NCBI GenBank assembly: GCA_964187785.1
Contig: OZ076410.1
Location: 22,940,001 to 23,004,000, forward strand
Source: Amphiscolops sp. MND2022
Taxonomy: Eukaryota
DNA length: 64,000 nucleotides
Direction: 5' to 3'
The notes below the pieces were generated by a model. That model made no database searches. It had not been told where the DNA came from and worked only from the letters and a program-made list of their open reading frames with translations. Of this stretch, positions 18,701 through 58,090 are shown piece after piece. The position numbers and the translations under genes are program-made. Every line of letters begins with the position of its first letter. Position 1 is the first letter of the stretch.

Positions 18701-21700
18701 TAAAAATGAAATTCAAAAATGTGGCTACTCATGTGCTATCAGGACGAAATTCTTTTCGCACTCCTGACACTCACCTCAAACTTTGTGCCTCTGTCGACTT
18801 TTTCAACTTCCATCTTTGAAATTCGGATCCTTGTTGGCACTTTAAGGAAACTATGTACCCCTATGCAGAGCACATGTCAGCCTCATTAAATACTGGAAGC
18901 TTTCTCTTTTCATCATTATGAGTTGAAAAGCGTGGCTAATACTAGGTTCCAGGGTAGCCACTTCAAAATTTCAAATTTGGGGCAGAGGCAAATTTATCTC
19001 TCAAATATTACAAAAATAACGGAAATCATGGTTAGTAAACAACATTATAGCGTGGCATCTTGAAGGTACTTGAAAACAACAGGTTAGAAGTGTGATATCT
19101 TATAAAAGCATAACATTAAGTTATTTAAATAACTTATGAAGAATATAAAACTTCATCCCTTTTTCTATTTTTGAACATTTTAGTGATCACGTCATCCGAC
19201 TGTGAATCCGCAAGAGAGTTAGCAGCTGCTGTCTCCGAGGATAATCGGCTCTTCTTCGAATGCAGCTCCTCTACACAAAGTTTGTGCTCAGAAGTGTGTT
19301 TCAGAATCGACAGATTTCAACTTTCTTAGCTCACATGCTGTGCACCTTTTGTATAATATTGAATTCGTCACAAAAAGCTGTGGCTTCAGACTCCACAAGT
19401 TGATTTGTTGCTTTCAAAACTTCGCATTCTTCTTTGTACTTAGGCGATGCGTTCTTAAGTTGCTGCAATTCTGAGGCGATACTGAAGTTTTCGAAATTCT
19501 CTTCTGAAAAAGGACTAGCATAGCCTCTGTTTCACATCCCAAATTTGTCCTGTAAGATGACTCACCGGATTTTACTGTTGAGAAACCAAACTCTACGTTC
19601 ATATTCTGCGGGAAAATCAAATGCGCTGTCTCAAATAATCACTCAACGCTCCTTTACCATGTAAGAAGTGTAGGGACACTATCGCAGCAGAAACAACTCC
19701 CAACGATGCAAAATCGTCAACTTTAAGTAGACCCGCCATGTGCACAAGGTTCCGGATAGTCTTGACCGTAAACTCAGCAAAAAAAACACAGAAGGCATCA
19801 AAAACAGCACTGGAACCAACAAATTGGACATCTGATACCTTCTTCACGGAGCCATTCAAAAACTCAATTTACCGAAAATTTTGCTTCCAATTCAATTGTT
19901 CTCAGATAAGAATTCTTTCTCAATTCCTCGTCAAAAAGAATGGTCCAGAATTCGAGGCGAAAATTATTCAAGCAATGACAAATAGTTGCACGCAGCACGC
20001 CAGCCTCCTTACTGCAACTCGCTATATTCGCCGCGGCAATGTGTGGAGTACGGCTTTTTCTATTTTTGAACATTTCAGTGATCACGTCACTCGACTGTGA
20101 ATCCGTAAGAGAGTTAGCAGCTGCTGTCTCTGAGGATAATCGGCTCTTCTTCGAATGCAGCTCCTCTACACAAAGTTTGTGCTCAGAAGTGTGTTTCAGA
20201 ATCGACAGATTTCAACTCTTTCTTAGCTCACAGGCTGTGCGCCGTTTGTATATATTGAATTCGTCACAAAAAGCTGTAGCTTCAGACTCCACAAGTTGAT
20301 TTGTTGCTTTCAGAACTTCGCATTCTTCTTTGTACTTAGGCGATGCGTTCTTAAGTTGCTGCAATTCTGAGGGGATATTGAAGTTTTCGAAATTCTCTTC
20401 TGAAAAAGGACTAGCATAGCCTCTGTTTCACATCCCAAAATTCCGAATAGTCTTGGCCGTAAACTCAGCAAGAAAACAACAGAAGGCATCAAAAACAGCA
20501 CTGGAACTGACAAATTGGACATCTGATACCTTCTTCCCGAAAGTCAAGTCCCGAAAGCGTGGTCCCCATGCAAACTTGTCACTTAACTTGTTCGTATATT
20601 TGCAATCTCCACTCATCACTACCTGAAAGCAATTAAAAATCAAGCGATAAATCCATATGTTGAGCCGATTGTAGCAAAAGAGAAAATGAAAGCTTGAATT
20701 AAATTCAAATGTTTTCTTTGACTAGCTAATCGATTGAGTGAATGAGAAGCCACATGTGAACAATTACGTATTGCAATATGATTGGTTGTTCCTTGAAGTC
20801 AAGCATGGTTAGCAACGTGGCATAGCGTGTTTAAAAAATCATACATCAAGCAATTCAAGTAATATTTAGTATAAAGTTCATTCCGATCACATTCGCGTAA
20901 ACATCCCGGCGGCCTTGGGATATCGTGACATCCCAAATTCTTTTTTCTTTCAGATACGAATGATGAACATCAGATAGGGGCCGCGTCGATGGATGTTTAA
21001 CAGTCTTGATGCAGCAGAGCAATACTTGCGGAATAGATACGAATCGTTGGGGAATCATCATGTTCTTCCTTGCAAAAGTGTCACAGAAATGCTATTGTGT
21101 CCAAACAAGCCCGCAGCCATCATCAGTCAGGTGGTACGTTACAGAGAAGAGAATGCCGGGAAAATCTCCAGGCGCGGACAATGACAGAGTTGGGTGAGGC
21201 ATTTGAGTGGACTGCTAATGAATCCACAAAGCATTACCCTAATACTCGATATATCAAGCAATGCTATCCAGTTGGGGTTCTTGCTTCAAATGAAAATTAT
21301 TGCGAATTGCTCCAACGTTGTGTTTGCCCGCCCGACAGAATGCATGATGACCAATTATACTTCAGCACTGGTTGCGCCTTCACTGGGTGGCACTTTGATG
21401 GAAGTCCAAACGCAGTGAGTGATGAGTCAGATTCAACAAGGTGAAAGTAGTGGTGGTTGGCAACGAATTGACGTGCAGGAAGAAGACATCAATCAAGGAA
21501 AACTGCTTACGCATTGCAGTGGGCACAAGAAGAGAAGGACAGGGTGCCCAATGATGTCATGTGGTATAAGCAGACTCCTGGAGTCACAGTGTACATCCCG
21601 TGGGGCTTCTCTCATCAAGTGTGGTCTTTGAATGTGACGTCCATGATATTCTTCAATTGCCTACCACCAGAGGACTTCAGCAGTACAATTGGAAGGCTCA

Positions 21701-24700
21701 GAAATTCATGTGCAAGATGGACGATGAACATTGCGGTCGCAAGGGATCGTACAGGCAAAGAGGAGAGCCCAGGGCGGGTGCTCGCCTGCCCATTCGTAAG
21801 AAGCGTTTTGGCCGCAAGTGATGGGTATGTTTGAAATCAGATTTGATTTTGGTAATTTATTGTTGTGATGTTTGATGAACTTCAATTGAAAACTAAACCA
21901 ATTGAGTTGAGTTTCTTTCGTGGCAATCCAGTCAAGTATGCAGGAATAGAAAAAATGACCCAAAGTAGTCGGCTTGAAAGAGTCTAATAAACATAATTCG
22001 ACACTGAGGTAAAACAAGATTGCCTGACAAACAGTGTTCGCCCATTAATCTTGTCTGTTATAGGGCTTCAATGATGGATGCATGCGCTTCCATAAGGTCG
22101 GTGATAAGTCATGACATAGCGTTTTTTTTCGATTTGAGCTCTGGGACGTGATAGTTGCAAGTCTAGAGCAGCTTTGCTGATTGCGATTTTCAGTTTTTAG
22201 TAGAATTCAGAAGCCTCAATTTTGAGGCAGGTCTGTTGTAGTTTCCGGCTGCCGTCCTCAATTGAACCACTTTCATGACATCATCGTTGCCTGCGAAAAT
22301 CCTTGTGATTCGTCCCCGTGGCCATACAAGTGGTGGATTGTTGTCCTTTACCTAGGATGAGATCGCCAATTCGGAATTTGGGCACATCTTTTGTCCATTT
22401 ACTTCTGTGTTGAAGATTGTTAAGGTACTCGGCTTGCCTTCGAGTCCAAAAGCTTCGTGAAAGTTGCTGCAGTAACTTCCAACGCTGCTGAGGGTTAAAT
22501 GTTATGTTCTTTGAATAAGTTGCATCTGGCCATGCAACAATAGGGGATTCAATGACGAAATGCCCACGTGACAAAACGTTCAAGTCATTCGGGTCTGAAG
22601 ACATGAGGCTAATGGGGCATGAATTGAGAGCAGTTTCCACTTGAGTGAGCACAGTGTAGAGCTCTTCGAAGGTCAAAGTTTTTGCGCAATAACGTTTTGC
22701 AACTCTTGATGCCAGCCTCCCATAGAACTCCTAAGTGCGGTGCCCTGGGTGAAATTATGGGATTCCGGACGTTTCGGCAAAAGACATTTCGGCAAAAACA
22801 TGGCGGCGGACGTTTCGGCAAAAAAAAATTTTCTTCAATTCCAGAATTCTACAAACTGGTTTTCTACAAATTTGGACCTAACCAGTTTGTAGAAAACCTA
22901 TAACAAAACCAAGATATTACGGGACGTTTCGGCATGAAAAATTTGCCGAAACGTCTCGAATTTTTTTTTTTGCCGAAACGTCCTGTTCCCGAATCATGAG
23001 CCATGCAGTGCCTTTAGGGCTGGAGAACTGAGTCAGTGAATTGAATGACTTGTCGTTGAGGATACGTGATGACTTGACGGCAGGATTGTTGCTCGAGTCC
23101 ACGTGCCCCCATTGCTCAGGGGCTATTGCCTTCTGAATGCGTGAAACTCGATTGCCAACGAAGGTTGGCCAATTCGATGAAAAATTCGCTAACCAAGACA
23201 AAACAATTGTGGAATCTGTCCAACCAAGGATGGAATAAATTTCAACATCCATTTTCTCCAGTGCGTATTTCCAGGTAGTCAGTAGCTTACCACCCAGATC
23301 AGCAGCACACAATTCTGACCGCGGCAGGCTGTTTTGATTTGTGCAACCTTGGATTTCGCCGAAAGGAGCTGAACTCGGGCGGTGCCAAGATCGACTTGAA
23401 TTCGTGAATAGACTACTGAAGCATAAGCACATTCCGACGCGTCGCAAAAAACATGAAGCTCGATAGCGCAGATTTTTCCGGGAGGTAGCACACAACAGTT
23501 CAGTTTTATTCGAGCCAGATCACTAAAGGTGTCTTTCGAACTGGGCCATTTCGTAGCAATTGAATCTCCGACGGCCTCATCCCAACCAACTCCAGCCAGC
23601 CATGTCTGCTGGATTAGCAAATTGAATTTGATTATAAGGATCATAAAGTTCGGCGATATCTGACAACAATTGACGGTTTGTTGGGTTGTCGACTTCAAAT
23701 TCACGTGTAGTGAAGCAAAAGTAATCGTGGAGAGAAATCCATTTTATTCCTAGAACCTTAATACTATGATCCCTATCTTAAAAAATATAAGCTGAGGGTG
23801 CTTCTTGCAATGTTTCAGGCAACCTTTGCATGAATTCAAAACTGCTCGATGACCATTTGCGAATATTGAATCCAGCCCTTTTGAGCTGTGTAGTAATTGG
23901 TTTGGAGCTAAACAGCATCATCAAGACTAGATGCTCCTGTCAGTAAGTCGTCTACGGCAAATTCGCGCAGAACAACTGCCGTCATTTGAGAATCATACTC
24001 GACACGAGCTGCCTCCTGAAGTGTCCGAATGGATTGATGCGCTGAAGATAAGACCCCGTAGGTCACACGTGTCACTCTGTATGTTTTGAGTGATTCGGAT
24101 TTTCGTTCCCGCCACAAAATGCGGTGGAAGTCCTTGTCAGGTGCATTCAGAGCAATTTTTCGGTACATTTTTTCTACGTCTGCTGTAAGACCGATGCGAT
24201 GAAACCGAAATGGGAGTAGTAATTCGAAAAGATCATCTTGAAGTCGAGGACATGTAAGCAGAACATCGTTGAGAGATATGCCTGAAGTGGTGACAGCGGA
24301 TGCGTCGAAGACCACACGCAATTTTGTAGTTGAGCTGGCTTCCTTTTCAATGCAATGGTGTGGCAAGTAGAACATCTCGTTGTCTGGTTTTTCGATCTCA
24401 TCCACGGGCACGATCAGTAAATGATCAAGATCAATGAATTCATTTATGAACTTGGAGTATCGATCTTTGAGTGCGATTTGCTTCTCCAGACGCCTCTCAA
24501 GAGACAAGTAACGCCGTTGGGCCAGCTTAAAACTATCACAGAGTGGCTTAGCTTCAGGATTGAAGGGAATAGACACTGAGAATCTGCCATCAGCACACCG
24601 CCTTGAAGATTTGCTCACACTGCTCTTCCTGCGGTGTTAGGAATCGTTGCTTCGGGATTTTCTCGATTTCCCAAAAGCTCGTCAGTGGATCATTAGTTGA

Positions 24701-27700
24701 AGATTGATTGACTGATGGGTCGATAGCTACGTGAAGGGAGCGTTGTATATCACCTTTAGCACGACTAGATAATGAGTCAGAAAGTATCCAAACACAGAGT
24801 TTTTCGCAAAAACAGTCTGTTTTGCAAATTGATTCGTTCACTGAGAACTATTGTATCAAAGATTTGCTCCAATTAGGAGATCAATGGGACCAGGAGTTCC
24901 GAAATTAGGTTCTGCCATTTCATAACCTGTTAATTGATTCTCTGGCAAACATTCTTTAGTTGCTGGTAAGAGACCAGTGATCGTTTTGGTCACAGCTCAA
25001 CTTGTAGGAAGCACCGTTGGAGATTGTCTGCACAGTAATTGCACGTTGATTTCTCCTTTGAGAGGTGGACCTGGGCATTGTCCAACTGCTCGTATTGTCG
25101 TAGTTTGCTAGGGGTGCAACCCAAGTCTCTGGGCACCGTGCTCCGTGATCATGTTAATGGTGGACCCCGACCCTAAGAGGGCCCGCATTGGAACCCATTT
25201 GACCGCATTGCCAAACACAGACACCAACAGTTCCTAAAATGGTTTGGACATTATCATTAGTGAACATTACCTGCGCATGTCCCACTATGTTGGATGTATT
25301 CTCTTTGTGTAAAAGAGAATTGTCACGCCTGTTACACGTTTTGCAGTTCCGCTTGCTGGGACATTTGGCCTTCAAATGACTAGGTTGCAGACTATTCCCG
25401 CATAGCTTCAACTTCAGAATTTCGGCATGTCTTTGCTCTGGAATCATCGCTAAAATTTTGGGACAGCCTTAAATCCGATGTTCGCCCGCATTGCACACTG
25501 GACACGGCTGTTCTTGTTGATGGTAGATCGTATGCTTGCCACATGCGGCGGGTCGTGACGCTGCTGGAATGCTTGGTTTCTCCTTCCGAGGTAGAATTTC
25601 AAAAGCGCTTGCTCGGTGATCAAAGAAAGTAAGCATCTTATCGAGAGTTGGAACATCGTTGCCTTCGAGGCTAAGTTCCCACTGGCGGCTTGATTCATGA
25701 TCAAGCTTGTTTACTACAAGATTGAGTACCAATGGATCCTTCCGACGTTCAAAAAATCCCTTGGCTTCAAGCGCAAACAGATTTTCACTGACTTCGCACT
25801 GCAATTTGCGGAGGTCAGCTGCACTTTCTTGCTTAAGAGCAGGATAGTTCAAAAAAGCTGCTATATGGGCAATCACAATTGATCGTTCATTGTTATAACG
25901 TTCCTGTAGTACCTTGCATGCGACGTCATAATTAGCGTGTGTAATCTGTAATGCTGAAGTGATCCGAGCAGGTTCACCTTTCAAGAAAGATTAAGTAACT
26001 GAGCTTCTCAGCTCTGCTCAAACTCTTGTTCCCGTCCACACATGTTCGAAATAGATCCCAAAAGGAAGTGCAAGACTTGTAACAACCATCAAAGTCAGGT
26101 ATGTTTAGTTTTGGGAGCTTGACATTGTCTCGCTTTGGTGTAACTTGACTAGATAAATTTGTAGTTTGTAAAGGAATTACCGGCTTGGGAGGTTTGGTGA
26201 AACTTTCGATGAGTTTTTCGAGCTTCCACAAATCCTCAGCATGGAGCTCGTCGACTCGTTCTGTTTCTTCCATTTCTTGTTCAATCAGAATCTCGATCAA
26301 CCAAACCTATTATGTCAAATAATCGTTCATTGATTGCGACGATGTCCTGTTTCTGGCGAATTCGTTCGACAATTTGCTGTAGTCGATCGATTGTGGCACT
26401 ATCTGTAGAGCCGGCTTGACTAATAACCTGTGCGTCAGCTAGAAGTCCTGTGACAGTCGATGTGTGACCGCCTCGTCTTCTCTTGAGTTGGCTGAGACGA
26501 ACTTTTTGTTCGGCCGTTGTCAGTGCCTGTTGGCCTTTTGACTCCTCCTCCGACATGTATTGGTCGTTTGAGAGAGCTGCTAAAGAATTTCCGAGAATGA
26601 TTCCCGGGACGCGGCACCAAAAAATGTTGTGAGCCGATTGTAGCAAAAGAGAAATTGAAAGCTTGAATTAAATCCAAACGTTTTCTTTGACTAGCTAATC
26701 AATTGAGTGAATGAGAAGCCACGTGTGAACAATTACGCATTGCAATATGATTGGTTGTTCCTTGAATTCAAGCATGTTAAGCAACGTGGCATAGAGTATT
26801 TAAAAAGTCATTCATGAAGCAATTCAAGTAATATTTAGTATAAAGTTCATTCAGATCACATTAGCGTAAACACCATTTGGGGATTGAAATTATGCTGGGG
26901 CAATTTGGGGGCAAAGTGGCAACCCTGGTAGGTTCAGTACATATGATTCTCATTTCGAAGTTTCACAATTACTTAGCTGAAAATTTACTGTTGTGAAATA
27001 ATTCCTGCCGTAAGGAGGGCAGAAATTCAATGTACTCTATGAAAAAGTGATGATTATCATAATTATTTTTTTGAACATACTGTTCGGTCATATCATTTTC
27101 CCTTGTCCGTACAAAAAAAACATGAAAAACGAACCTCGTCAATGGGCAAATCTTCAGCTTCGGGAGGTGCCTCTTTATTATCGCTTCCTCCTTGGTTTTT
27201 GAATGCCTTCTGGTCCCTCGAGGTGGCTGACCTGGCAAGCTGGGGTTTGGTGGGAAAACAGCCTTGGAGACCTATGTCATCTTCTCCCGCTGACCCGGAT
27301 GAGAGGTCATTTGTTGCGTGACCTATAGTTGGTTGTTGTCTCCTGCTAGGTGAGTCCCGGGCTACAACACATTGAGCTGACATGGGTTGTGATTGGTGGA
27401 AAACAAAAGCATATTCAATGTGGTTGGTTTTGAAAAAAGTAAAAGCTAGAAACAGCTGAGGAAAAAAGGAACCCATTCGGTTTTTTCTCGTCAAAAAAAA
27501 TCTCGAACGGAGAAATGGATGCAAAGAAAGCAGTCAAACAAAAAGCATCTCAAACTCAAAATGAAAAAATTCAATACTTTATCGTACCTAAGATATCAAT
27601 ACGAGATAATGGTTTAGTAGCAAAAAGTGAAGCCCTTAATTGATTGAAGCAGAAAACGCCACTACATAATGCTTCGAAGCTATAATTCACTAATGACATG

Positions 27701-36700: not shown

Positions 36701-39700
36701 AAAAAATTAGCGACGTCAAAACCGTGTAATGAACAAACAAATCTATCATTGCACACTTCATACATACTTTAAAGCCATTGGGCAAATGATCGTGCGAATC
36801 CAAATCCATATGCAAGTGGTGATTGGGGGACGGCTGTTGAGCTAGGGGGTTGGGATCCCAGGGGAGTTTCTTGCCCGCACTACTGAGCACGACGGCCCTT
36901 CTCTCCGTGGCACTGCTAGGCACACTCTCGCTAGCAATCGAGTCGTTGTTGCCGACACCGGAGGACCCAATGCCTGAGTCACCTGGAAACGAAAAAGAAC
37001 GAAGTGTTATGAAACGAAATCACATTTGAATTAATTTTTTGTCACAGCAATTGAAATGCTTAATCGAATTTCTATCAGACCAAAACTGAGACATCGCGAA
37101 TACAAATTTCATCCTTTAAGTCATTAGAAATTTCACCAGTTTCTACCTAACGAAATTTTTCTACCAACATTTAAGAGAACACTGAAAGAAAGTCAACAAA
37201 TTATCCATTTTCCAAAAAACAAATTCGCTTCACACTGAGCATCATATATATTGATAAATATTAACGAGTTCCATTGGACGTTGGAAATTAGAAAAGCCGC
37301 GTTGAAGATCCAAACAATGGTCGACATTTCAAGAATATCAAGTGGAAATGACCACCAGGTTTCATTAGAAAAATCAGCAGACATTCAATGATGCTCCAAT
37401 AAAACACAAGTTATCACAAGTACCTGTCAAAATGTCTTAGACTCGATTTGTTTTCGATCGAAGTTGAATTGTTTTTAGGACAGACGTCATTCACCATCAT
37501 TCGCCGGTAGAATATGCGAGGAGAGACCTTCAAGTAATGGTGCAAGTGATTTTCTAATTTTCAACGTGAAAAGGCACTTTTTGTGATAGGCCATTCAAGA
37601 TTTAAAATGTAGTTATGAAACAAGACACCCAGTCAATGCCGGGGAAATTTCCCCAAGCTGCAGAGTACGAAAATTGATGTGCAAGCTTATCATGTGCTGA
37701 CTAAAAAAATGGTCTCGTCAAATTTTTTGACCTGCAAGCACTTTTCCTGTCAAAAATACAGCAAAGATAACGGGATAGCAATATGAACAAGATGAAAACT
37801 AGTGAGAATGATTCTTTCTCCCTATTCCACCAGAACTATGGGTAGGATGGTAAATGAAACGATAAATCGTGGGAGCTCTAATATACTTGATTAGGCTACC
37901 AGAATGTTTATACCTGGTAAGTTTCCTCCCCTGGAAGAGCCAGAGGCTTTCAAGATCCAGTCAACATCTGCACCCAGATTAGAAGCAGTAGATCCCGCAC
38001 TGGCAGGAAGGGAGGGAGATCCCCCGTTGGAAGAGGAACTTCTGCTCTTGCCTGCCGCAGAGGAGACCGCAGATCCTGCAACTGAAGTCGCGTAATCCAC
38101 CATCCCGTTTTCTTTGATCATCGGCAGTTGGCGTCTGAAACGTTGTTACTGAGTAATAAAAAACAGTCTATTTTTCGGAAAACCAACACTGTATTACTTC
38201 TGTTTTTATAATTATCAAATGACTGAATTCCGAGTATAAGAACGAAAGGGACCGAAAGTAGCGCAAAGAACTTCTGAACATTATTGAATGTTTATAGTTT
38301 AGGGGCATTTTGTGTATCTTCCATTCAGAATCTTTCATCACACGTCTTCATTGGTACTATACGCTATCTGATTTAACAAACCTTCATACGAAAGCGAAAC
38401 CTTCATACCTTCACACAGAATTAAATGAACATATGCTTAAAAATCTTCAAACGGTCACGTCGATGCATAACTGGTCTTGAGTTTTTAACATCTTTCTTTA
38501 AAAAATTTGAGCTAGGTGACTCTGGCGAAAACATGTTTTTTGAATGTAATCTCTTTCAACATTCCTGCCAGAAAAGCCAAAGTTCTATCTACTTTTAGTT
38601 TAGACGTTGAGTAGCCAAAAACTGGGAACAAACCTTGCAACCCGAGCCTTGATAGCATTCATGGGCCCGTCCCCAAACTCGGGTTCCAACATCTCAATGG
38701 CTCTTATCAAGGGTTTCAGGTTATTCACACCCATCAATTGCGCCAAAACGGCAAAAACTTCCAAAGCTGCTTGTCTCACCCTTCGCTTGGGGTCCGCTAA
38801 ACATGGCGATATGGTATCACACAAGGTCGTGAAGTCAAAGTCTGTTGTCGGAAACGTCAGCAGAGCAGAGATGATAACATTTATCGTTTCTTCTCTCACC
38901 CGAGAGTTTCTGTGCTTCAGACAGGGCAAAATTTGTTCTAAAACTGGCATAGGGGTGGCTGTGTACATGAGTTCTCGAAATGCCCGTGAGTTCAATTGAC
39001 GAATGACTATTTTGGAGTCACCCAGTCTATGAGATAAAGCAGCGGCTAGAGGTTCTACATACTGACAGGACAAAGCCCCAAGTTTTTTGATGAGCACAAC
39101 GAATATTTCCAACGTTGACATGGTAATTTTAAAGTTAACTTCGTCTGTCAAAAATCTGCAGAGAAATTTGATAAAATCGACAAGATCCGGCTTAAGATTT
39201 GAGACATCGTTCAATTGTGTGACGTCAGTTTTGAGATCTTCGATTCCATGGAGACGTAACTGCCAGTCTTCCCTGTGAAAAACAGTGAAAAATCAAAATA
39301 CCTAATTTTACTCGGCGCTTCTAAGTTAAGACTAAAATCGTTGATATTCACGAGGCACGAACGCGATGAAAACGGATGGCACGGCCAAAACGACAGTTGG
39401 CACCGTTATTCCAGTTGTCCTAGTGGTTATGGCGTTGGCTTTCGAAACGACTGGATTCGATTTCCACTAGGGTCCAATTTCTGCGCCCGTTTCGAAATGT
39501 CTTGTTGGCGCTATTAAAAGTTCGCCTTCGAAAAGTTCGCACGTCAAAAAGTTCGCATCCTTAAAAGTTCGCTTTCAAAAAGTTCGCCTTTCCTTTACAT
39601 GTTAAAGAGGCTCTATTAAAAGGAACATTCAGGAAACATAATAGAACATTGGATTTTTTTTGAAAAATTTTAAACACAGATAACTAAAGTTATCAAAAAT

Positions 39701-42700
39701 TAGGCAATAAATTGTCAACTTCATGCTATGTTCATAGAGCATCCTCGCAAAAACTCAACAATATTGTTGCTGTCGTATGACGTCACTAGTTCTACCAATC
39801 GTTCATTGAGTGCGATATACTTGGCCTTTTTCTTCGTTTTTTCACCACTCAATGACTTGATAACTTTGATTTCGGCCATTTTTTGCTGGTCTTTCAATCT
39901 TGTCAAAAATTGGTATACAGAGGGATGCTTAGCGTCCATAGTAGAGTTGCTAAAAACGCTATTGAAACTTTCTGCACCGTTATTCGTTCTGGGCTCTCCG
40001 GTTCTGAATCGCTTGTGACAGTTCCAGTGGTCAATTGAAAATCATGGATGCTTTCTTTCATTTCTCAACTCGTCCGATGTAATTATCTTCAAAGTAGTCA
40101 AGCACTTGATCAAACTCCTCATCGTCCATACTATTTTCGAGTTCTTTGTAACCCCTCTCAACGTCAAAAGGTGGTAAAAATGCCAAGAAAATTAGCACTT
40201 TGTAATGCTGTCTGAATTTTGAACCTTCAGTGTAACGGATTTTCAAACCGAAATCAGTTATTTTTCAAAACATGCGTTGCCCAAGATGAAAGAAACAATA
40301 ATTAATTGTGCATTGTTCAAAGACTTTTTCTATAGCATTTCAATTGCTACTTCAAAGTCAATTGTTATAGATAAGACTGTAAATGTTTGAAAATGTAGAA
40401 TATTTTAATATAAGTATCTTCCGGTTTATTTGGTAACAATGCATAAACCATCGGGAATAATGTTGATCTAACATATGTGTGAATAATAAATAATTGGTAA
40501 AAAAATGTTGGAGCTACTTTGAAGGTTCCGTCCGCTTGCCAATATAAACTATCATAAAAACTATTTTGAGAGGGATTCTGGTATGACTAGCTCCTTCAAA
40601 GAATTAGCGTTTTTAGGCATAACTTCCAATTCTAGTTTTCTTTTGTTCCTTATAGTTTGGTAAATTGAAGTGTAAGAAGGAATCGCCGATGCAGCATCTT
40701 CGGATAGCTGGGTTTGACATGAAAAGACAACATGTCGGGGCTTTTCAGCGGTAATGATAGATATCTGTTTCACGTCACTCATAAATTTCTTCGCCTCAAT
40801 TTCCTCGCTTTGGGGCAAATGGGCGTGATAAGAATAATTCGTGATATTTTGGTCAAAATCAATGGTAATTGAAGCTTTGCAGTGTGCTTCTTCAACACAG
40901 CGGTAGCGTTTTGTTCCATTTTTGTTCACGGCCCCAAGTCTGTATATAAAGCCTTCATAAACAAGTAATTTATTTTTACCGTGAATACTTTCGATAAATT
41001 CCATGGTGTATAAACAGTGAAAATTATGCGTGTCATAAGGAGAGTGCAAATGTATATAATGGTGAATAATGGAGCTTACATTGTTAGTAATGCATCAATA
41101 ATATATACCAGACACTAGTACCAGTAAGTGTTAATTGAAGTGTTACTTCCTGTCTTTGCTTGGTTTTAATCAGCTCTGAATAATGAAGTCTAAATTATTA
41201 GTAATGCATTATAGGTGCGAACTTTTTGGGTAACGAACTATTTATATGTACAATACTCCTTATATGTGAAATAGGTAATTAGTAAATGAAATCGTTGGAG
41301 TTTTTGCGCTAGAGTAATTTAGTGGCTCAGCTCCAAACAGCAAATCAGCACAGAATTCAATTTCAGCTGATTTGGATTGATTTTTCTCAATATTTTCTCA
41401 CTACAATTAAACTAGGGTTGATCTTTTTGTTGAACCACCGGCATAATTTTTCATAAATTCCAAAGGCATTCATTGTTTTAAAAATTGAATTAAAATTTTT
41501 GCCCAGCAGCTGTTAAATTCGTCGTTTTCAGAGGTTAGTCTACCAGGTGTTGTAACTTCAACAAAAAGAAGAAGAGTTAGATTCCCCAATGCTGCGAATT
41601 GTAAACCGAAAAATCACTTTCAATTTAATTGAAAAACGTGGTCAAAAGAAACTATTCGTTTATTCCTCATCGTACCTGTTAGTCAGTCTTATCATTACAT
41701 CCGGTTTGATGATCCCGAATTCGACACCCCACTTGCTGCTTCCAGCCATGTTGGCTCCATTCCGGGGAGATGACTCATTCAGTCCCGGCATGCGTCCAGA
41801 GTCTGGATCATTGTTGGACGCGGCTGTGAGTTTGGCGGCCAGTTCTCTGGCTGTGAGGGTCGTGTGTGGGGTTTGAACAGAAGGGGCCGAATCTAGAAGA
41901 ACCAACGGACAAGAATGGGTAAGAGCTGTTTGAAAAATTGACCGGAGTCGCTTCTTCAACATTTTTTTCTTTTTACCGAAATGGTTTGTTTTGATAGTTT
42001 CAAAAGTGTCACTGGGAGAGAACATACACAGAAGTAAATTTTCACCAATATCAAATTTCAAACCAATATCACAAGCAATATGGTCACAAGCAAACCAACA
42101 TCCACGATTCTATAGTTTAATTAACAACGTTTCAATTCTTTCTATCACAAAGCATTCACCTTTACTAATTTCAGGGTTGGGTGATTATGATCAAATGATT
42201 ATAATCATTGATTATAATCAACGTGATTAACACTGTATTAATCATGACTAGGAAAACCAACTTTCGGCAACCGCCGAAATGCCGAAAAAGCTCATTTTTT
42301 GCCGAAAATTAACTCAATTATGATATGGATTTGTATGATCCATTTAAACGCGGGATCCAATTAAACTAGTATGCGAGAGGTGTGGAGATTTCAGAACCTG
42401 TACTAATCAGTATTTTTCAAAATGTGCATTGCACTTCCGTCGATATCGAGAGATTTCTCTCCGTTCTGAAAGCGTTCAAAGCGGACCGACCGAACATTCT
42501 ACCAGAAACTGTGCTGAAACTGATGTTTGTTACATACAATGATAATCTGTACGATAACTTCCGAAATTTACAATTTTTACCAAAAATCGGATTTTTCAGC
42601 CGAATTTCTGCCGAAAACAGTTTTTTTGGCCGAAAATTGGTTTTCCTAATCATGACTGATAAAAGTAAGTAAAAATAGGCCAGTTTCTCGACGTGAATGA

Positions 42701-48372: not shown

Positions 48373-48527
48373 CCTAATTATTGTGATAAACTTATTAAAT
48401 AGGGAAACCTGTTTAATAAGTCAACTTCAGATTCAATGATATAATACCTGGATCACTGGAACATCACTGGGCACTGGACAATTGAACTGGACCCTTGCTC
48501 TGTGACGGTCGAGACCAGGAAACCATC

Positions 48528-48787
48528 GGGTGAACGGAAATGGGTCGAAAGAAATGGGTCGAATCGGCCTCCTGTGCCATGGGTCGAATCTTCACCGTTT
48601 CGGAATTGGGTCGAATGGACTTGGGTCGACCTTGAAAAATGTCAAGTTCTAGGGAGACAACATATTGATTTCGACCCAATTCCATTCGATCCAATTCGAC
48701 CTCAGTCAATTCGACCTAAGTTATTCGACCAAAAGGGTCGACCTAATTCTTTTCGACCTATTTCATTCGACCCATTTCATGCAATCC
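48528..48787. mobile_element. Mutator/foldback-like MITE
   Basis: Inverted GGGTCGAA arrays; 9-bp TSD GAAACCATC at 48519-48527 and 48788-48796; GG termini. Confidence 0.82.
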
Positions 48788-48837
48788 GAAACCATCAATC
48801 GGCAAACTGTTAGTTCGTTCCATTTACCATTTACCCT

Positions 48838-49421
48838 ATGGTTTATCTAATTGGAGCAAGTTCACTCTATCGAGCCTTTAATTCTTCACCTTACTCTCTC
48901 AGATCTACAATTTATAAAAAATCTACAGCCATCCCTGGATTATCCCTGAACCCAAATTCAAACAATAGACTTAAAGATCTTGGTTTCTTACTGGAAAGAG
49001 GCCAGTTGAGAGATAGAAGCGATCTTGTTTGTTGGCACGACGTTATTAAAAACAGTATTACCGAACATAAATCAAACGGAAATAAAGCCCTCACCGTTGA
49101 ACAGCTTTTGCACATCCTGAAAAAAATTCCCAAAAGTTTGCTGCTATCATCTACTGCCAAAGATTCAGCACTCCAAACATTCTCGAAGAACTGCGAACGC
49201 TAAACATCCTTATCATCGACGTCAAGAAAAAACTTCTGTCCAAGCGCAAGCAGAAAACACCAAAAATCACCTCTGAACTACAAAAAGTTCACCACTGGCC
49301 CGAATTGGAGCGCAACTTTATCACCACTATCCTCAAGAAATCGACAGATCTCTACAGCCTAGTTCTACAGAAACGATCCAAAACAAGAAAGAGAAAACCC
49401 AGAAAAAAGAAGAAAGCCTAA
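48838..49421 (+). pseudogene. LINE-A upstream ORF0, SGNH/GDSL-like with basic tail (one frameshift near 49130)
   Basis: MVYLIGASSL...LVCWHDVIKNS...AIIYCQR...ELQKVHH...RKRKPRKKKKA*; homologue at 57650-58090. Confidence 0.6.
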
Positions 49422-49520
49422 TTGAAAAGTTAGAACTTTTTTCTTAATTATCACTTAAGAGTACGGCGACAGCTTTTGAGGTTTAGTTACCTTGGAGTAG
49501 TCGTCGTGCAATTAGGTAAG

Positions 49521-51480
49521 ATGCCATCCAAAAACAAAAAAAGACCGCACAGTATCAGCAGCAGATCAAAACCCGGACGACTGCGGAACTTGTAACAATG
49601 CAGTACTATCTGGAACAAGTGCCATCGAATGTGCTTCTTGCGTACGCTGGTTTCATCAGAAATGCACCGACCTCGCTGAAGAAACTATTAAAGCGATAGA
49701 TGGTTACAAATCGATTCATTGGTACTGTAATGATTGCTTGCACTCCGTTAGAAAATTTCTACGGCCTAAAGGACTGAAAGCAATGGACCAAAAACTGGAT
49801 ACACTCATCGAGTCAAACCGACAACACCAAAAAAGTCTCTCGGCAACAATAACAATAACCAAAGTTGACAACGCAACAAACGTTACAGCTGTTTCAACGG
49901 AGAGTATCACGAAACTTTCCAAAGACCTGTCTGCAAAAATACCAGCAATAAACAAAGTTGCACACGGAATTGCACCCAGAAGTAGCTCTGTCAAAGACGC
50001 TGTTGAAAAATGTCGTCAACGTATGCCACAGCCACAAATAAAGGAGCAGCAATACAAACAGAAACGTTCACCATAACAACCAAACCCAGAGATGTCAACG
50101 GAGTTCTCATTATCGAGAATGCAGATCCTACCTTCAGAAACAGCTCTGATATAAAAAGAAGCTTCTCCAAAGCCTTCCCCAAAAAGAAACTACTATATGC
50201 CTTCAGAACCACCAGAGGGCATATCCACCTGGAATTTGAAACACACGATGAATCCAAAGAGATTGAAGATGCATGGCGGTCAAACTTCTTGGGTAAGGAC
50301 ACGGTCTGTCGCAGGCCAAGAACGCTTCAGAAAACCTTCTCAATCATAATAAAAGATGTCCCGAAAGAAGACGATTTTACAGACACAAACATATCTTCTT
50401 CACTACAAGCAAACTTCCCTGAAGCAAAAGCTAGAAGATTCATTAAGAAAGAGAGCACCATTCTGGATTTCTTCCAAACTCAAAGAAAAAAACAATGCAA
50501 AACATGGTAATTTATTTTGGCGAAACATTCAGAAGGTATTCCCCAACAAAAAAGACCAGATGGTAGCCCCTTTGAGATCACAATCCGGACCGTGTTTCGA
50601 TGAGCCAGATAAAGCAAAATTACTGCTCAACACGTTTTTTAGCGGTAGCCATCTGAAAGAAGAAGAATTTGACAGAGAGTTTGAAAACCTTGTGGATGAT
50701 CAAATGCGATAAATTGATTTTTTAGAATTTACAGACAGTAATGCGTACTCCAGCTTATGGTTCAATGAAGCTGTTGAAAGACATGAACTAGACGAGATCA
50801 TTGAAAAACTACGAAACCTGAAATGTAACAGCGACGATGACAAGATCCACCCGAAGATGGTCATCATGTCTGGAAATAACTTCAGAACCTGCCTAATCAA
50901 CCTCTTCAACTCTTGCCTCAGATCTGGAGCCTGGCCTTGGACAGACACTCGCGTTTTACTCATTAAGAAACCCATGAAAGCTGACTACAGCAACCCATCT
51001 GCCTTCAGGCCAATTTCAATCAGCAGCCATATAGGAAAAGTCTTCGAAAGAATACTCAACCGACGTCTAATGCGCTACATGCTCTCTGAAAAACTTATTG
51101 ATATTGAACAAGAAGGATTTCTCCCAGAGAAAAACACCGTCAGATCACTCTTCAGACTAAAACTCGAATGCGACCTCCTCAAGAAGAGCAAATTATGTGC
51201 AGCTCTCATAAATCTAGACTTAGAGAAGGCTTGCGATAGCGTTTGGCACAATGGCCTGCTGCTGAAGCTATGGACAGCAGGAATACGAGGATCACTCTTT
51301 AATCTGCTTCGGAATTTTCTCAAATGCCAACTGATACGAACAAAACAGGATGGAGTGTTAAGCTCGCCCATTAAGCCAAAACAGGGAGTTCCGCAAGGAA
51401 GCGTACTCTCACCATTGCTTTTCATATTTTTCATCGCAGAAATGTGGAAGAATACTGATGGGATTAATTCCCATGCAGGT
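49521..51480 (+). mobile_element. LINE-A (I/Jockey-group-like): PHD-finger ORF1 and ORF2 RT fragment; endonuclease deleted
   Basis: PHD CGTC...CASCVRWFHQKC...WYCNDC; RT FRPISISSHIGKVFERIL, DLEKACDSVWH, GVPQGSVLSPLLF. Confidence 0.9.
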
Positions 51481-51899
51481 TTCGTTGTTTTTCATCACAA
51501 CTCAACCTCGAAACCTATCCAATTGCAGGAATACCACATTTGGGTGTGTGCCAATCTCCCAAAAAAAACAATCACAACAGTGAGGCAATCCGTATACAGA
51601 GCAAAACCTTGAATTGTTAAAAAGAAATAAAAAGAGAATTATCTCACCGGGTTGTGATGGTTCTTTCAGCCCAAGTGCAGCGACAAACCAACAAAACAGC
51701 GTCAGAGATGTTGTCCAGTTGTCTCAAATTCAAATCATTGCCATCTCTGAAGCTATTCAACAAGCCCATCACAACAATTAAGCTAATCGCTATGATGAAA
51801 TGCGTTTTTGGGATGAAAAGCTTGAAAATTTTGTCGTTTCAAGTGATTGATCTATGATACGATATATTGCAATAGTTGTATTTTGCAATATCAATATAT

Positions 51900-53469: not shown

Positions 53470-56400
53470 AATGATGAGAACTATACAATTCCGTTTATTT
53501 TCGGTGAATGTGAGATGTTGTGAACAATGGTATTGCAGTCTTCAGGGTCAAGGAGATTCAAAGAGTCAATGTCGTCTGGTCCGATGTCTTGGAATTGACC
53601 ACATACAAGAAAGAATTGTTTTGCAGTCTCTTCTCTTTTGTCACAACGACACATCGGAGATTCCGCCTGCCAGTTTTTCCAAGCGTAATCGGCTAAAGCG
53701 AAAGAATTGTCGATCATCTTCTCACATATTTTGATGGCTTCATACCTTTGGCAGTTGAAAAGGGCACTAGAGTGCTCCAAGTTGCTAGGATTATGGTGCA
53801 ACATTTCAGAAAAGACTTGTTGTCATTATTATCCCACCTGAGGTTCCACAGATGCTTAATGAAAAGGCTGATATCTTGCTGTTCATATCTCGTACAATTT
53901 TGAATTATCAAAAACTTTTCGAATCGAGTAACATGATTCTCGAGGAGGTTAGCAACACTGTCCAGAAAACAGGAAGATGCATCATGGGCCCAATGTAGTA
54001 AATCGTTTTCTAGTTTGAGCTTCCAGAGAAATTTGACGTTGATTGCTGTATTTAGAAGATCAAGACGTGGTGTTCCTAGAAGAACCTGTCATGAGTCGAT
54101 ATTCGGCGAAACTCCGTGTCTAAAGACTGTCCTCATGAAATTGTTCTGTACTGCTGTGACGTATTTGAGGTTTTTCTCCAGCAAAAATTGGTGCTGCATA
54201 GAAAAGTGAGAGTAGGTTGGTAGTTTTGTACAACAGAACTAGCGTTGAAACTGCATACTCCACTTTCTATTGCATAACGACTTGATTATATTCCAATTTC
54301 GCTTTCCTCTCTTAGTTGTTTAAGTAGAATGATCCCGGTAGTTGAGCTTGCTATCACTAATTACTCCGAGAGACTTCGTTGTTTTTTACCTTGACATATA
54401 TCACCATTGACGGACGGGAGTTCGAAGTCATTTCCTTTGTAATTGAAATGGATTAATTCAGTTTCTCCTCCTTTCACTAACATCCTCCAATCTGAACATC
54501 AGAGAATTTTGACGGATCTTTGCCAGTGACAATGAGAGAACTTTCGTCTGCAACCTTGAATTGTTGTGCATGATTACGAAGGAAGTCGTTCAGGAAGATG
54601 ATGAAGAGCAATGGCGACATTACACTTCCCTGTGGAACGCCAATGTCAATCTGGAACTTCGGAAATTGGTCCCCATTCACTCCGATGAAAGCGACTCTGG
54701 TTTTTAGAAACGATTTTATTATCTGATACATTTTGCCAGAAAAATTGTGTTAACAGTTTAAAGAGAAGGCCGTCCACCCCACGCTTTTGAAAGCGTTTTC
54801 GAGGTCAATGTTGAGCAGAGCCGTTGTCAAACGTGAACGTTTGGCATTTTCGTGCATGAGATGTAGTCTGTAGAGCGATCGAGTGGTGTTTCTTTTCGAT
54901 CTGAAACCCTCCTGTTTGTACACAAGCAGTCCATTCACATCAAGATGTGATTTGAATTTAAATGCAAGTATTCTTTCCTGCGTTTTGCCGATATGACTGG
55001 AGACTGAGGGTGGTCGATATGAAGAGCATTCATCATATCTCTCTTTGTTTAGTTTGCGTATGAAAACGACTCGTGACTCCGTCCATGGCCACACATGATA
55101 TTCCCAGCAAGCATTGAAAACATTCCGCAGAAAAAAAAGGTGCTTTAGTGTCCAAATTCTTTCTCAATGTCAAATGGAGACCATCAATATCAAACGATTT
55201 GGTGCTGCTTGATTTCTTCAATTCGTCAATTGTAATTTCATCATGAAATACTTCATTATCATGTTCAGGATCATCAAGTGGGTTGGTTTATTTTGGCTTC
55301 TACTTGCAGTTATGTTGCATTGTTGAAATGTTGCCTTTTCAGATGTTTTCCTCTGAAGAACGTGGATACAAATTCTTTGCTAATTTCTTCTGGAGCATAT
55401 AAGAGCCTCCCTTCCTTACTGCGTATTAGACCAATTTCTTCGTGTTTAGTGTTGGGTAAGGTTTTGTAAGAAGTCCAAAACTCTTCTTCTTTGATGCCCA
55501 AGCAATGACAGATAGTTTTCCATCGATTCAGTTACACATTTGTTCAGTAGAATTTTGAAACGTTCCTCAGCTGCCTTCAGCTTTTATCCGTTTTCAAAAT
55601 TTGATTTGAATTTGAACTTTTTGCGTAAAAACCGAAGCTCATTGCTTGCGTCTGTCCATTTTGAGTTCCAAAACGGTTTGCTATAGTTTGAAACACCTTT
55701 GAGGGGTATGTGACCAAAGGAAGCTTCAAAAAACAGATTCCTGATCTCGGTAAAAACAGGGTCGTCCTCAACAACCATGAGACTGTCTAATCAGCCCTCA
55801 ATGAAAGAAGTCCAACCTGCCCTTTCCAATAAGCTTTTTCAACCCGTAATTTCGTGGTTTTTTCGATGTTGCTGCTACAATCCAATCTCATAATAACAGT
55901 AACAAGGCCCCTCAGTTGAGCACCGGTGAAAAGCAAATTCATCCGTAGACAGAAAGTGTTTACATCTATCAAAAGAGGCCCGTAACAGATGCAAAGATCG
56001 ATGACAGTGGAGTCACTTGCTGCCAAAAACGTAGGCCCGCCATCCTTGAAAATGCTTAAGTGGTCAATGATTTGAACTAGTTCCTCACCTAAAAAGTTAC
56101 ACGATTTGTCCCCCCAATACGTATGCCTTGCATAAAAGTCACCAAAGAAAAGAGCTTCATTCAGACAATTTTTGTCAACATACGTTTTGCAGCTCTGTAT
56201 AATTTTTGTTGCTTTTCTCAAGCCTTCGAAGTCATCGGGTCTGATATATGAAGTAGTTACAACTAACTTGATTCCGCCTAGCCTAACAGTCAAAACAACA
56301 TTATCACCAGAGGTGTCCTCGAGTTGATAAAGTCTTGAGTAAGGGATGTGATTTTTCAGTAATACTGCCACGCCCCCATATTGTCCACCCATACATCTGA

Positions 56401-58090
56401 TTGTTGTCAAAAAGATTTGCGCTAATTTGTGTCTTGGTTTCATTAAGAAAAACGATATCAGCTTTGGTTTGTTGTAGGTATTGATTTTATGCTTATTTAC
56501 TATGATCACTCAGGCCGCAATTATTAATCTGCAAGAAGGTGAAACCAGGGTTAGCCATCATTTTTTGACACGGGGTTTCTTGAAATCGGTACTGGTAGAC
56601 CAGGCACCTCAGAAAAATTTTGTACCTGTTTATTAGAAGTTGGGCAGTCAAGAGAATCAGTTTCGTGGCTTCCGCTGCAATTGGTACACCTGGCAGGCTG
56701 ATTACCTTCGCAGTTTTCGACAGAGTGCTCGTCGGAGCAATGTTTGCTTGACAATTTCGAATGGCAACTGGAACTGACGTGTCCGAATGTCTGACATTGG
56801 TAGCAGTGGATTATTCGTGTTCCTTGCTGTATGAGTTCGACTTGTTGATAGTACAAATGGTCAAAGAAAGTCCCATCGGTTGTTGCCTTGTCAAACTGGG
56901 CTTTTGAGGGAAACGTCAATTTGACAGATTGCAGTGATTTCCCATCGCTTTTTGACAAAGCGTCGGATTCTGACACCTGGAAAATTATCAGTAAGAGCTC
57001 ATATCATGTCCGAGTCGGATACTTTTAATGGTATCGATACTTTTAACTCATCGTTTTACGGCGCTGTGCTGCTCATTCCTGTCACTAGTTCTCCGAACCG
57101 ACGAGTCGCCCTCAACAAATTCAACCTTCCATCCCTGCAAAACACAGTCAGCCTCCTCTGGTGTTGTAAACTCGGGATGTATATTACCACGCGCTGTAAT
57201 AAAGACGTAGAGTACCTTATTGTTTGGATATATGGAAGCAAACGCTTTTTAAATTTCGATGCTATCCCTTAACTCCTGATATATCTTGATGAGCAATATG
57301 TTGCGAGGATCACAATTTTGTCTTGTTCCACTTCTGCTTTCAGTTGTACTTTTCGTTGGCGTTTCGTCTCAGTTACTTTTCATTTATCCGCTTAATTCTC
57401 GAGAAGCTGAGTTGATGCTGGCATTGCTGGGTTGTCAAACTGGGTTGTCAAATCACGACTCACATCCGTTGCAACATACTGAATTCTTTTCAGTTTCCTC
57501 AACAATACTTTTACATTTAGGGCAACAATCATCCGAGACCGACTGATTCCTGTTTTTTGGTCCCATTATGTCAGATCACTGCCAAATCGCAAGGTTTCCC
57601 AACCAACTAAGGTTTTCGAAGTCCAAGAAAAAAAAACAAGATCATTAGCCTACTGAGGCACTCTCAGTTGTCTTAGCTTCTTTCTTAATCTCTGATTCGG
57701 GTTCTTCCTTATCTTTTTATCTGGTTTGAACCTCTGTACGTGATTTTGGTTATTCCAGACTATATGTAGGAGGTTGAATTCTAGTGCTGCCGACGGATGC
57801 ACCTGTTGCAAGTCGGACAGGAGTGCACTGTCTTTGCGTTTCCTATGAGAAATTAATTTTCTAACAGCGTCGATGATGATAATCTGTGAACCGAATAACG
57901 GCCTTTTGATGTTCCCGGTGCCCAGACGACGACAGTAAACTATTGCTTTAATTCTGTCCTTGAACAGCCGGAGATTCTCTATTAGCTGATCGATCGAACT
58001 TGGCTGATAGTTTTAGCTTCTATGGGGTGAAACTGAATTGTTTATAACGTCGTGCCAAATAGCGTCGTACCTTTATCCTCCAGCAAATAA
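53470..58090 (-). mobile_element. LINE-B, near full-length and decayed: ORF0, PHD plus triple-knuckle ORF1, APE-RT-CCHC ORF2
   Basis: ORF1 ATG 57566 (MGPKNRN...CPKC...CNGCES*F), knuckles CYQCQTFGHVSSSC; APE YGGVAVL, GDFYARH; RT SHIGKTQERIL, GVPQGSVMSPLLF; C-terminal CRCDKREET..FFLVC. Confidence 0.9.

Follow-up and report, generated by a model that had tools for sequence, protein, structure and literature searches.

An antisense JmjC-fold gene carried by LTR retrotransposons of two superfamilies and its possible role against host silencing

RESULTS

A BEL/Pao element carries a broken JmjC gene antisense to pol

Analysis of a 64,000-nucleotide window from Amphiscolops sp. MND2022 (contig OZ076410.1) showed that a decayed BEL/Pao retrotransposon carries, at its 3′ end and antisense to gag-pol, a decayed accessory gene that recurs in many of the genome's LTR retrotransposon families. 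The position, orientation and spread of the gene are documented here, together with its JmjC fold, its metal-ligand residues and the purifying selection on it. That the intact gene encodes a histone-demethylating counter-silencer is the explanation we tentatively adopt, and we regard it as close to an even call.

The element occupies positions 20658-26873 on the minus strand, and an LTR pair with TG...CA ends, a target-site duplication, a PBS and a PPT are all present. The 5′ LTR (26625..26873, minus) and 3′ LTR (20658..20904, minus) are 93% identical, and the left copy of the 5-bp target-site duplication (20653..20657) agrees with the right copy (26874..26878) at four of five bases. A PBS-like site lies at 26606..26624 (minus), and a PPT-like site at 20905..20915 (minus) adjoins the 3′ LTR and is alike in all six genomic copies. 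Pfam identified, all on the minus strand, a decayed gag (DUF1759, 25157..26306, E 3.5e-20), a decayed reverse transcriptase (RT) and RNase H region (Peptidase_A17, 22920..24636) and the C-terminal part of integrase with DUF5641 (22284..22730, E 3.7e-12). Compared with a sibling copy, about 1 kb of the window pol is absent near 23070. The BEL/Pao order gag (DUF1759)-protease-RT-RNase H (Peptidase_A17)-integrase with DUF5641 was found in the window, the sibling and other families. In domain order, LTR size, length and metazoan host the window element agrees with BEL/Pao retrotransposons as described in the available part of PMC3118150. Env is the only extra gene named there, and the words JmjC and antisense do not occur in that text.

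The JmjC gene lies on the plus strand at 20963..21821, in the interval between integrase and the 3′ LTR, as a sequence-only reading had proposed. That reading gave a span of 20954..21834; the location was right, but alignment with the sibling places the start at about 20963 and shows 21834 to be the stop of a shifted frame. The three peptide pieces that it quoted were found on the plus strand, in differing frames. It was also correct that the gene is broken, with more lesions than the two it named: there are five frameshifts (near 21170, 21420, 21450, 21530 and 21680) and three in-frame stops, and the lesion near 21415, taken for a GTGA duplication, is not a duplication in the sibling alignment. 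The gene retains the codons of T-x-x-H-x-D, of K and of the distal H, as well as a basic tail at its end.

Env was rejected as the identity of the extra ORF on the basis of no env Pfam match, the opposite strand and a soluble enzyme fold. A nested second element was rejected as its source because the ORF has the same position in all copies, and a host gene hit by element insertion because the flanks vary from copy to copy.

The gene is shared and has evolved under purifying selection

Antisense cargo was present in six of six genomic copies of the window family, between intact LTR pairs, so that the segment is not a one-off capture. The suggestion that an active ancestor carried an intact JmjC gene was borne out by a young sibling copy with a natural open frame of 291 aa (87% DNA identity to the window copy), and by selection on the window copy itself. 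For the latter, dN/dS was 0.31 (CI 0.19-0.47), as against 0.42 in the window pol. The count at third codon positions was 47, compared with 27 and 21 at the other positions, which indicates selection on the protein frame. Ten between-subfamily pairs gave dN/dS values of 0.11-0.54, with intervals below 1, while the youngest sibling comparisons gave 0.92 and 0.54, both compatible with 1. After insertion the JmjC gene decays like pol. This suggests that selection acts during element replication, and not at fixed host loci. We consider it very probable that the cargo is a selected, element-borne JmjC enzyme.

The Pfam check that had been proposed gave a divided result. The two window ORF pieces had no JmjC match on their own. 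The open sibling matched PF02373 (E 5e-4), but at 20.9 bits it fell just under the curated cut-off of 24 bits. Across the family, PF02373 matched 25 of 36 members at E ≤ 0.01 (best E 3.6e-7), and 14 of 37 relatives reached the curated cut-off. The Pfam failure of the window pieces and the sub-threshold score of the sibling are what would be expected if the segment were a captured piece of host sequence evolving neutrally, or a frame arisen by chance. That explanation is largely refuted: dozens of families have the gene at a fixed position, with open frames and with catalytic residues that do not vary, and dN/dS lies far below 1. We give neutral capture or a chance origin almost no weight.

The predicted fold is that of JmjC oxygenases

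The predicted model of the open sibling (pLDDT 86, pTM 0.82) has a double-stranded beta-helix fold matching JmjC proteins, and the fold assignment made from motifs was thereby upheld, with a Z of about 13 to JmjC structures. The top 17 structural matches of the model were all JmjC (Z 10.6-13.2, rmsd 3.5-4.3, 192-225 residues aligned), and Atlas JmjC clusters were matched at 0.92-0.95. Identity to the top solved JmjC matches was 9-15% in the structural alignment, and the open sibling retains both the HxD...H iron ligands and the Lys.

In a family alignment of 36 sequences, about 24% alike, the metal ligands and the Lys were the most conserved columns. All 36 have H146 and D148, and the Gly preceding K does not vary either; K165 was conserved in at least 90%, and the distal H was present in every row reaching that far. 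The features of the JOR/JmjC superfamily, namely HxD in strand 2, a basic residue in strand 4 and His in strand 7 (PMC2938197), were all found. Thr or Ser precedes the first His in most families, and Arg in one family group. The basic tail is usual, being short or missing in the L080, L087, L088 and L090 families.

The strong divergence from solved JmjC proteins, and the replacement of Thr by Arg in that one group, would be compatible with a non-catalytic cargo, such as one that serves as decoy or binding protein for methylated histone tails or host KDM partners, or an iron/2-oxoglutarate sink. However, conservation concentrated in the metal ligands and Lys is as expected of an enzyme, and a non-catalytic role appears quite improbable.

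Sequence features favor the KDM2/7 group without the full pocket

The best PDB matches of the family profile were ceKDM7A (E 1.8e-9), PHF8 (6e-7), KDM7A (4e-5) and JMJD6 (6e-5). T-x-x-H-x-D and K are in KDM2/7 register, so that the Thr and Lys ligands proposed for a KDM2/7-type enzyme do align, but the rest of the pocket does not follow. In KDM2/7, the aromatic residue after HxD, the strand-3 Tyr and the Asn ending strand 8 have roles in cofactor and substrate binding. The family alignment shows no conservation at the corresponding KDM2A residues (F215, Y222 and the strand-8 Asn), and identity to KDM7/PHF8/KDM2 is 9-12% in the structural alignment. Strand 7 has the form HxxxS/T, as described for the KDM2/PHF2 group (PMC2938197). 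Histone demethylases are marked by reader-domain fusions (PMC2938197), whereas Pfam found no PHD, CXXC, F-box, LRR, Tudor or other reader domain in the sibling and its relatives. No longer fused form of the cargo was seen among 8000 candidates, which is weak evidence. Given the absence of reader domains and the unconserved pocket residues, histone demethylation is a conditional assignment, and histone methyl-lysine as the substrate falls a little short of an even chance.

A fold search did not separate the classes: demethylases (PHF2, KDM2A) and hydroxylases (JMJD5, FIH, TYW5) tied within 1 Z unit. The same selected cargo might instead be a JMJD6-, JMJD4-, JMJD5-, FIH- or TYW5-like hydroxylase. 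Its target would then be a host protein other than a histone (for instance a factor in silencing, splicing or translation), a host RNA, or Gag or RNA of the element itself. A stand-alone domain without a reader, the missing KDM2/7 pocket residues, the structural tie and the presence of JMJD6 among the profile matches would all fit, and the orchid Gypsy precedent targets RNA, according to the available part of PMC9289625. Against this, the best sequence matches are KDM7/PHF8. The JMJD6/JMJD4 marks of the histone-demethylase clade core (a strand-3 Asn and a strand-7 HxxxN; PMC2938197 Table 1) are absent from the family alignment, strand 7 being HxxxS/T. Also absent is the insert between strands 3 and 4 of the FIH1/TYW5/JMJD5 clade (PMC2938197), since strand 3 leads straight into G-x-K. 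A hydroxylase is thus a serious but lesser possibility.

The cargo occurs in BEL/Pao and Gypsy-like elements

At least 135 related JmjC matches were found in the genome. In 44 of 45 long loci the JmjC gene was antisense and at the 3′ end of pol; 34 of these were BEL/Pao and 10 Gypsy-like. At 10 loci the gene lies within both LTRs. The cargo is that of a BEL/Pao family, as first described, but its range is wider, taking in many BEL/Pao families and Gypsy-like elements. Pairwise comparison of pol gave 42% over 961 aa to another BEL-type pol and 26% over 82 aa to a Gypsy-like pol, and similarity of the cargo crosses the BEL/Gypsy divide; exchange between superfamilies would rest on pairwise scores.

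The cargo profile was equidistant from three other JmjC genes of the genome (probability 92.7-93.1). Among JGI metagenome and IMG/VR contigs, a single-protein query gave no confirmed relative, and with a tighter subfamily alignment none of the pattern matches, 454 in one scan and 25 in the other, was confirmed.

Signals for a separate antisense transcript

A pyrimidine tract and AG resembling a splice acceptor lies at 20938..20953 (plus), separated by a few bases from the JmjC start codon that follows. Of 14 aligned elements, 12 have an acceptor-like site ahead of the start. Across the window TTYCAGAT occurs 15 times against 9.5 expected, a count reached by 4 of 100 shuffles. As this enrichment is slight, the acceptor argument depends on placement before the start codon. 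One BEL family, L085, has a phase-0 GT-AG intron of 114 nt linking two open exons. Together, the acceptors and the intron point to a separate spliced transcript, as judged from sequence. An antisense promoter would probably reside in the 3′ LTR, which immediately precedes the JmjC gene. A possible but weak poly(A) signal, AATAAA, occurs at 21986..21991 (plus), about 165 nt past the JmjC stop; in the sibling element six were found with 5.8 expected by chance. Trans-splicing was also considered. One of two host JmjC genes had an acceptor-like site just before the start, a sample too small to decide.

Antisense transcription also bears on whether the gene is kept to limit the element or aid the host, by self-restraint or a regulatory antisense RNA, and not to beat silencing. 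Antisense transcripts of LTR elements can work via dsRNA (PMC7264820, in the portion available), and one locus, L073, has an open JmjC frame with no pol nearby. However, selection is on the protein frame and the cargo decays alongside pol after insertion; such a function seems improbable.

DISCUSSION

On the demethylase reading, the cargo would have a spliced mRNA of its own, started by an antisense promoter within the 3′ LTR or close by. The reverse orientation would let acceptors and introns survive, as the genomic RNA represents the opposite strand. The product is predicted to be a stand-alone JmjC oxygenase, about 270-300 aa long and dependent on Fe(II) and 2-oxoglutarate, which the basic tail could direct to the nucleus or to nucleic acid. 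There it would most likely strip repressive methyl-lysine from histones, or a similar mark from a chromatin protein, and so counter host silencing of the element. We propose that template switching could exchange a cargo beside or inside the LTR between elements that are not related; its occurrence in both BEL/Pao and Gypsy-like elements would then be accounted for. The broadest form of this proposal is that two LTR superfamilies share a mobile, spliced, LTR-linked histone-demethylase cassette that erases silencing marks and, where embedded in the LTR, is duplicated with each insertion, a RAG1-like giant element independently carrying a SET methyltransferase and a KDM2/7-type demethylase. We hold it more doubtfully.

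The means by which animal transposons withstand chromatin silencing are largely an open question, and the best-known cases are plant VANC and the orchid Gypsy RNA demethylase. To our knowledge VANC has no homology to JmjC. The likeness to VANC of Arabidopsis VANDAL transposons is functional only, as a transposon factor against epigenetic silencing; by the available account (PMC5735166), VANC belongs to DNA transposons, causes loss of DNA methylation and has sequence-specific targeting, whereas no sequence-specific targeting module is evident in the cargo.

Our literature search found no JmjC cargo of this kind in retrotransposons, the nearest precedent being AlkB in orchid Gypsy elements. From the accessible sections of PMC9289625, the Phalaenopsis elements likewise combine an LTR element with a 2-oxoglutarate/Fe(II) oxygenase ORF, an m6A RNA demethylase proposed to act against host surveillance. 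They are a single 25-kb Gypsy lineage with a recent capture near host ALKBH and demonstrated activity; here, a very divergent JmjC, known from sequence and model, is carried by BEL/Pao elements of about 7 kb and by longer Gypsy-like ones. Bdelloid rotifer LTR retrotransposons also have extra 3′ ORFs (ORF3: DEDDy, GDSL and others) across diverse retroelement types in one animal genome, in the Juno, Vesta, TelKA and Mag clades (PMC5408684, as far as available); JmjC, Jumonji, demethylase and dioxygenase are unmentioned in that text.

Plant antisense aORFs (Grande gene23, RIRE2, Retand) share the position between pol and the 3′ LTR and the orientation. The available part of PMC7264820 gives them a separate antisense promoter and nuclear products, and urges a search for spliced antisense transcripts. 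It describes their proteins as mostly without clear homologs and with no function known; here, in contrast, there is an enzyme fold with catalytic residues kept, embedded in the LTR in some families. A class of antisense 3′ ORFs previously without known function thus gains an enzyme fold, and some LTRs encode a whole enzyme.

A histone-demethylase-fold enzyme is borne under selection by dozens of young elements in two superfamilies, so that a small purified enzyme and defined peptides could be used to test retroelement counter-silencing. If the demethylase reading is true, retroelement-encoded erasers would be party to an arms race in which enzymes act directly on histone methylation. A cargo that hydroxylates non-histone substrates would constitute a new JmjC subfamily and would hint at a step of host restriction.

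This genome also harbors another element, giant, RAG1-like and present in high copy number, that bears SET together with a KDM2/7-type JmjC. Descent of the cargo from this JmjC was rejected, as it is no closer than the host KDM6-like or JMJD4-like genes. The existence of such an element suggests that histone methylation is contested in this host.

The BEL/Pao element and its siblings

The window is one stretch of a 1.07 Gb genome. A FLYWCH domain in the window, a KDM5 gene whose domain layout is that of animals, and the BEL/Pao elements point to an animal source. A BEL/Pao element occupies 20658-26873 of the window's minus strand and carries an LTR pair 93% identical, PBS- and PPT-like sites, and a 5 bp target duplication in which four of five bases agree; gag and pol are decayed. 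The sequence-only reading had placed JmjC peptides opposite pol, after the integrase end and before the 3′ LTR, and they were found at that position, on the plus strand. Two window ORF pieces, when searched singly, matched no JmjC model. A DNA search of the genome returned six copies of the family, with LTR identities of 91-98%. Co-occurrence of LTRs and JmjC segment was seen in all six, each having both the LTR pair and the segment. The copies represent five independent insertions; two of them (L022 and L023, G000:C5:38.28-38.31 Mb), 17.5 kb apart, have common flanks and target duplication, and reflect either a segmental or an assembly duplicate.

One sibling retains a natural open JmjC frame of 291 aa, while the remaining copies are broken at differing places. 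Alignment to siblings placed the window gene at about 20963-21821 (plus strand), with frameshifts near 21170, 21420, 21450, 21530 and 21680, and three stops. In this comparison, the lesion near 21415 that had been read as a duplication was not one. A separate insert of ~230 bp in the BEL integrase (window 22760-22990), not present in the sibling, has internal repeats and an apparent 8 bp duplication at its flanks, and is MITE-like.

Fold and class of the cargo protein

The open copy matched PF02373 with E 5e-4, but its score of 20.9 bits was below the cut-off of 24. Its Atlas neighbours were JmjC or unnamed clusters (0.92-0.95). The structure model (pLDDT 86, pTM 0.82, final 30 residues of low confidence) was used in a VIA search, where the top 17 matches were all JmjC proteins, with tied Z scores (PHF2 and JMJD5 13.2, FIH 13.0, KDM2A 12.6, TYW5 12.3). 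Foldseek concurred on the fold. When 36 relatives, 22 encoded in this genome and 14 taken from databases, were aligned (mean identity per column 24%), H146, D148 and G163 were invariant, K165 and W167 were kept at ≥90%, and the distal His was kept in every row extending to it; 25 of the 36 matched Pfam at E ≤ 0.01. The fold matches and invariant metal-ligand residues bear out the JmjC identity first proposed from sequence.

By profile search, the nearest solved relatives were ceKDM7A (E 1.8e-9), PHF8, KDM7A and JMJD6. Comparison with Table 1 of PMC2938197 showed that the cargo family has the KDM2/PHF2-type HxxxS/T, and that it lacks both the FIH-clade insert and the Asn found in strand 3 of the clade core. 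Positions equivalent to KDM2A F215, Y222 and the strand-8 Asn were not kept. No reader domain was found in the cargo proteins, and a basic C-terminal tail was present in most cargo families and absent in four. Judged by these comparisons, the cargo is best placed as a JmjC protein nearest to KDM2/7 but outside that class.

Selection on the JmjC frame

dN/dS was estimated by the Nei-Gojobori method with codon bootstrap, for pairs that are non-independent and with transition bias ignored. Between the window and open copies, substitutions over 280 JmjC codons numbered 27/21/47 by codon position, giving dN/dS 0.31 (0.19-0.47); the RT-RNase H region gave 0.42 (0.31-0.57). Another old copy gave 0.28 (0.15-0.45) for JmjC. 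For the two young siblings compared, the values were 0.92 and 0.54 and both intervals included 1, which is what decay after insertion should produce. Among 18 other JmjC pairs, 10 fell at 0.11-0.54 with intervals below 1, two near-identical pairs spanned 1 and six were synonymously saturated. The comparison of copies and subfamilies that had been suggested thus yielded values well below 1 in old copies and in 10 of these 18 pairs. The analysis as a whole shows that the JmjC gene borne by these elements is conserved and under selection, and that its metal ligands are intact.

Distribution in BEL/Pao and Gypsy-like elements

A protein search of the genome, in which 134 of 300 candidates were scored, gave at least 135 matches. 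Long loci were studied at 45 places, a non-random sample of 5 siblings and 40 picked from top matches and apparent pairs. In 44 of these, JmjC was antisense to pol and located at the 3′ end of pol, which was BEL-type in 34 and Gypsy-like in 10; the one other locus, L073, had no pol within the stretch. The remaining ~58 loci were sampled at even steps as 14 stretches of 3 kb: nine had opposite-strand pol, one a weak same-strand pol match, and four no pol in reach. In several cargo-bearing families the LTRs are 99-100% identical and gag-pol retains long open frames, which marks these families as young.

In 10 BEL loci, the JmjC gene lies within long terminal repeats and is present twice. The long LTRs of the BEL families at L075-L084, which reach about 1.9 kb, each hold a whole JmjC gene. 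Solo LTRs of such families would leave a free-standing JmjC gene; L152, L153 and L156 are candidates for this, or else represent 5′ LTR copies. At the locus L073, a 9.9-kb stretch in which no pol was seen, there is an open 318-aa cargo-type frame (L073:7258-8211, minus strand). It has three or more relatives that are 75-83% identical, is 43% identical to the Gypsy-borne type, and is either a non-autonomous element or a domesticated copy.

The window-family pol was 42% identical to another BEL pol over 961 aa, and 26% identical to a Gypsy-like pol over 82 aa. Its JmjC, in contrast, scored 76.6 bits (31% over 207 aa) against that of the same Gypsy-like element and 48.5 bits against each of two BEL families. 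This discord in pairwise scores fits cassette transfer or repeated capture from one source; unequal rates could contribute.

Expression signals and possible function

In 12 of 14 aligned elements, both BEL and Gypsy-like, a pyrimidine-rich AG preceded the start codon by no more than ~15 nt. In one BEL family, open exons of 86 and 203 codons are joined across a 114-nt phase-0 GT-AG intron. We infer that the antisense orientation is fixed because a retroelement intron persists only opposite the genomic-RNA strand. A putative antisense mRNA, spliced and arising in the 3′ LTR region, would encode a nuclear enzyme that removes repressive histone methylation. Such demethylation is a tentative assignment, with a little under an even chance of being correct; a role in hydroxylating RNA or a host factor is less likely. 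Lacking a reader domain, the enzyme might act broadly, or recruitment by the basic tail or a partner may bring it to its own loci.

Relatives and precedents

HMMER against 1.84 billion representatives gave 27 matches to the cargo protein and a profile search 24; none of those looked up carried a name. Some were 43-67% identical to the nearest genomic copy compared, and could belong to other species or to families not yet sampled. Full-text literature searches, mostly judged by title and abstract start, found no JmjC cargo in retrotransposons; Repbase, Dfam, GyDB, supplements and most subscription journals were outside this scope and could hold prior annotation. JmjC is not named in the main text of PMC3118150, PMC5408684, PMC8220671, PMC7264820, PMC6431247 and PMC9289625. 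The JmjC cargo is real, and is undescribed as far as the literature searched. It is a variant of what is already known, LTR retrotransposons with a captured 2-oxoglutarate oxygenase or an antisense accessory ORF. TET/JBP dioxygenases are carried by fungal KDZ transposons.

Other carriers and window features

A Pfam genome scan also turned up a larger element of non-LTR type, bearing SET, JmjC and BRCT genes, in many near-identical copies (99.6-99.7% over 9.9 kb). There are two related high-copy families, each >15 kb and also with tandem repeats, at L125/L126 and L132/L133 (G000:C1:25.63-25.65 Mb and C1:26.45-26.47 Mb) and dozens of other places. Atlas features indicated a RAG1-like protein (0.94, a lead), and the carrier would most probably be a giant DNA transposon, Transib/Chapaev-like, whose cargo consists of chromatin enzymes. 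The JmjC of this carrier is genuinely related to KDM2/7 (E 2e-18) and shows no special closeness to the retrotransposon cargo. Two independent carriers in one host suggest that histone methylation is under strong pressure there. A host KDM5-like gene of animal architecture (L140:1568-5872, minus strand) is a single 1435-aa open frame with an acceptor-like site 8 nt before its start codon.

Elsewhere in the window, domain searches identified two decayed LINE-type elements, one with a PHD finger upstream of RT (48445-51612, plus strand) and a second at 54750-56509 (minus strand). At 58839-63128 there is a decayed Copia element whose LTRs are 90% alike, and a TOG-domain host exon (38600-39292) and a FLYWCH zinc-finger ORF (40561-41094) both lie on the minus strand.
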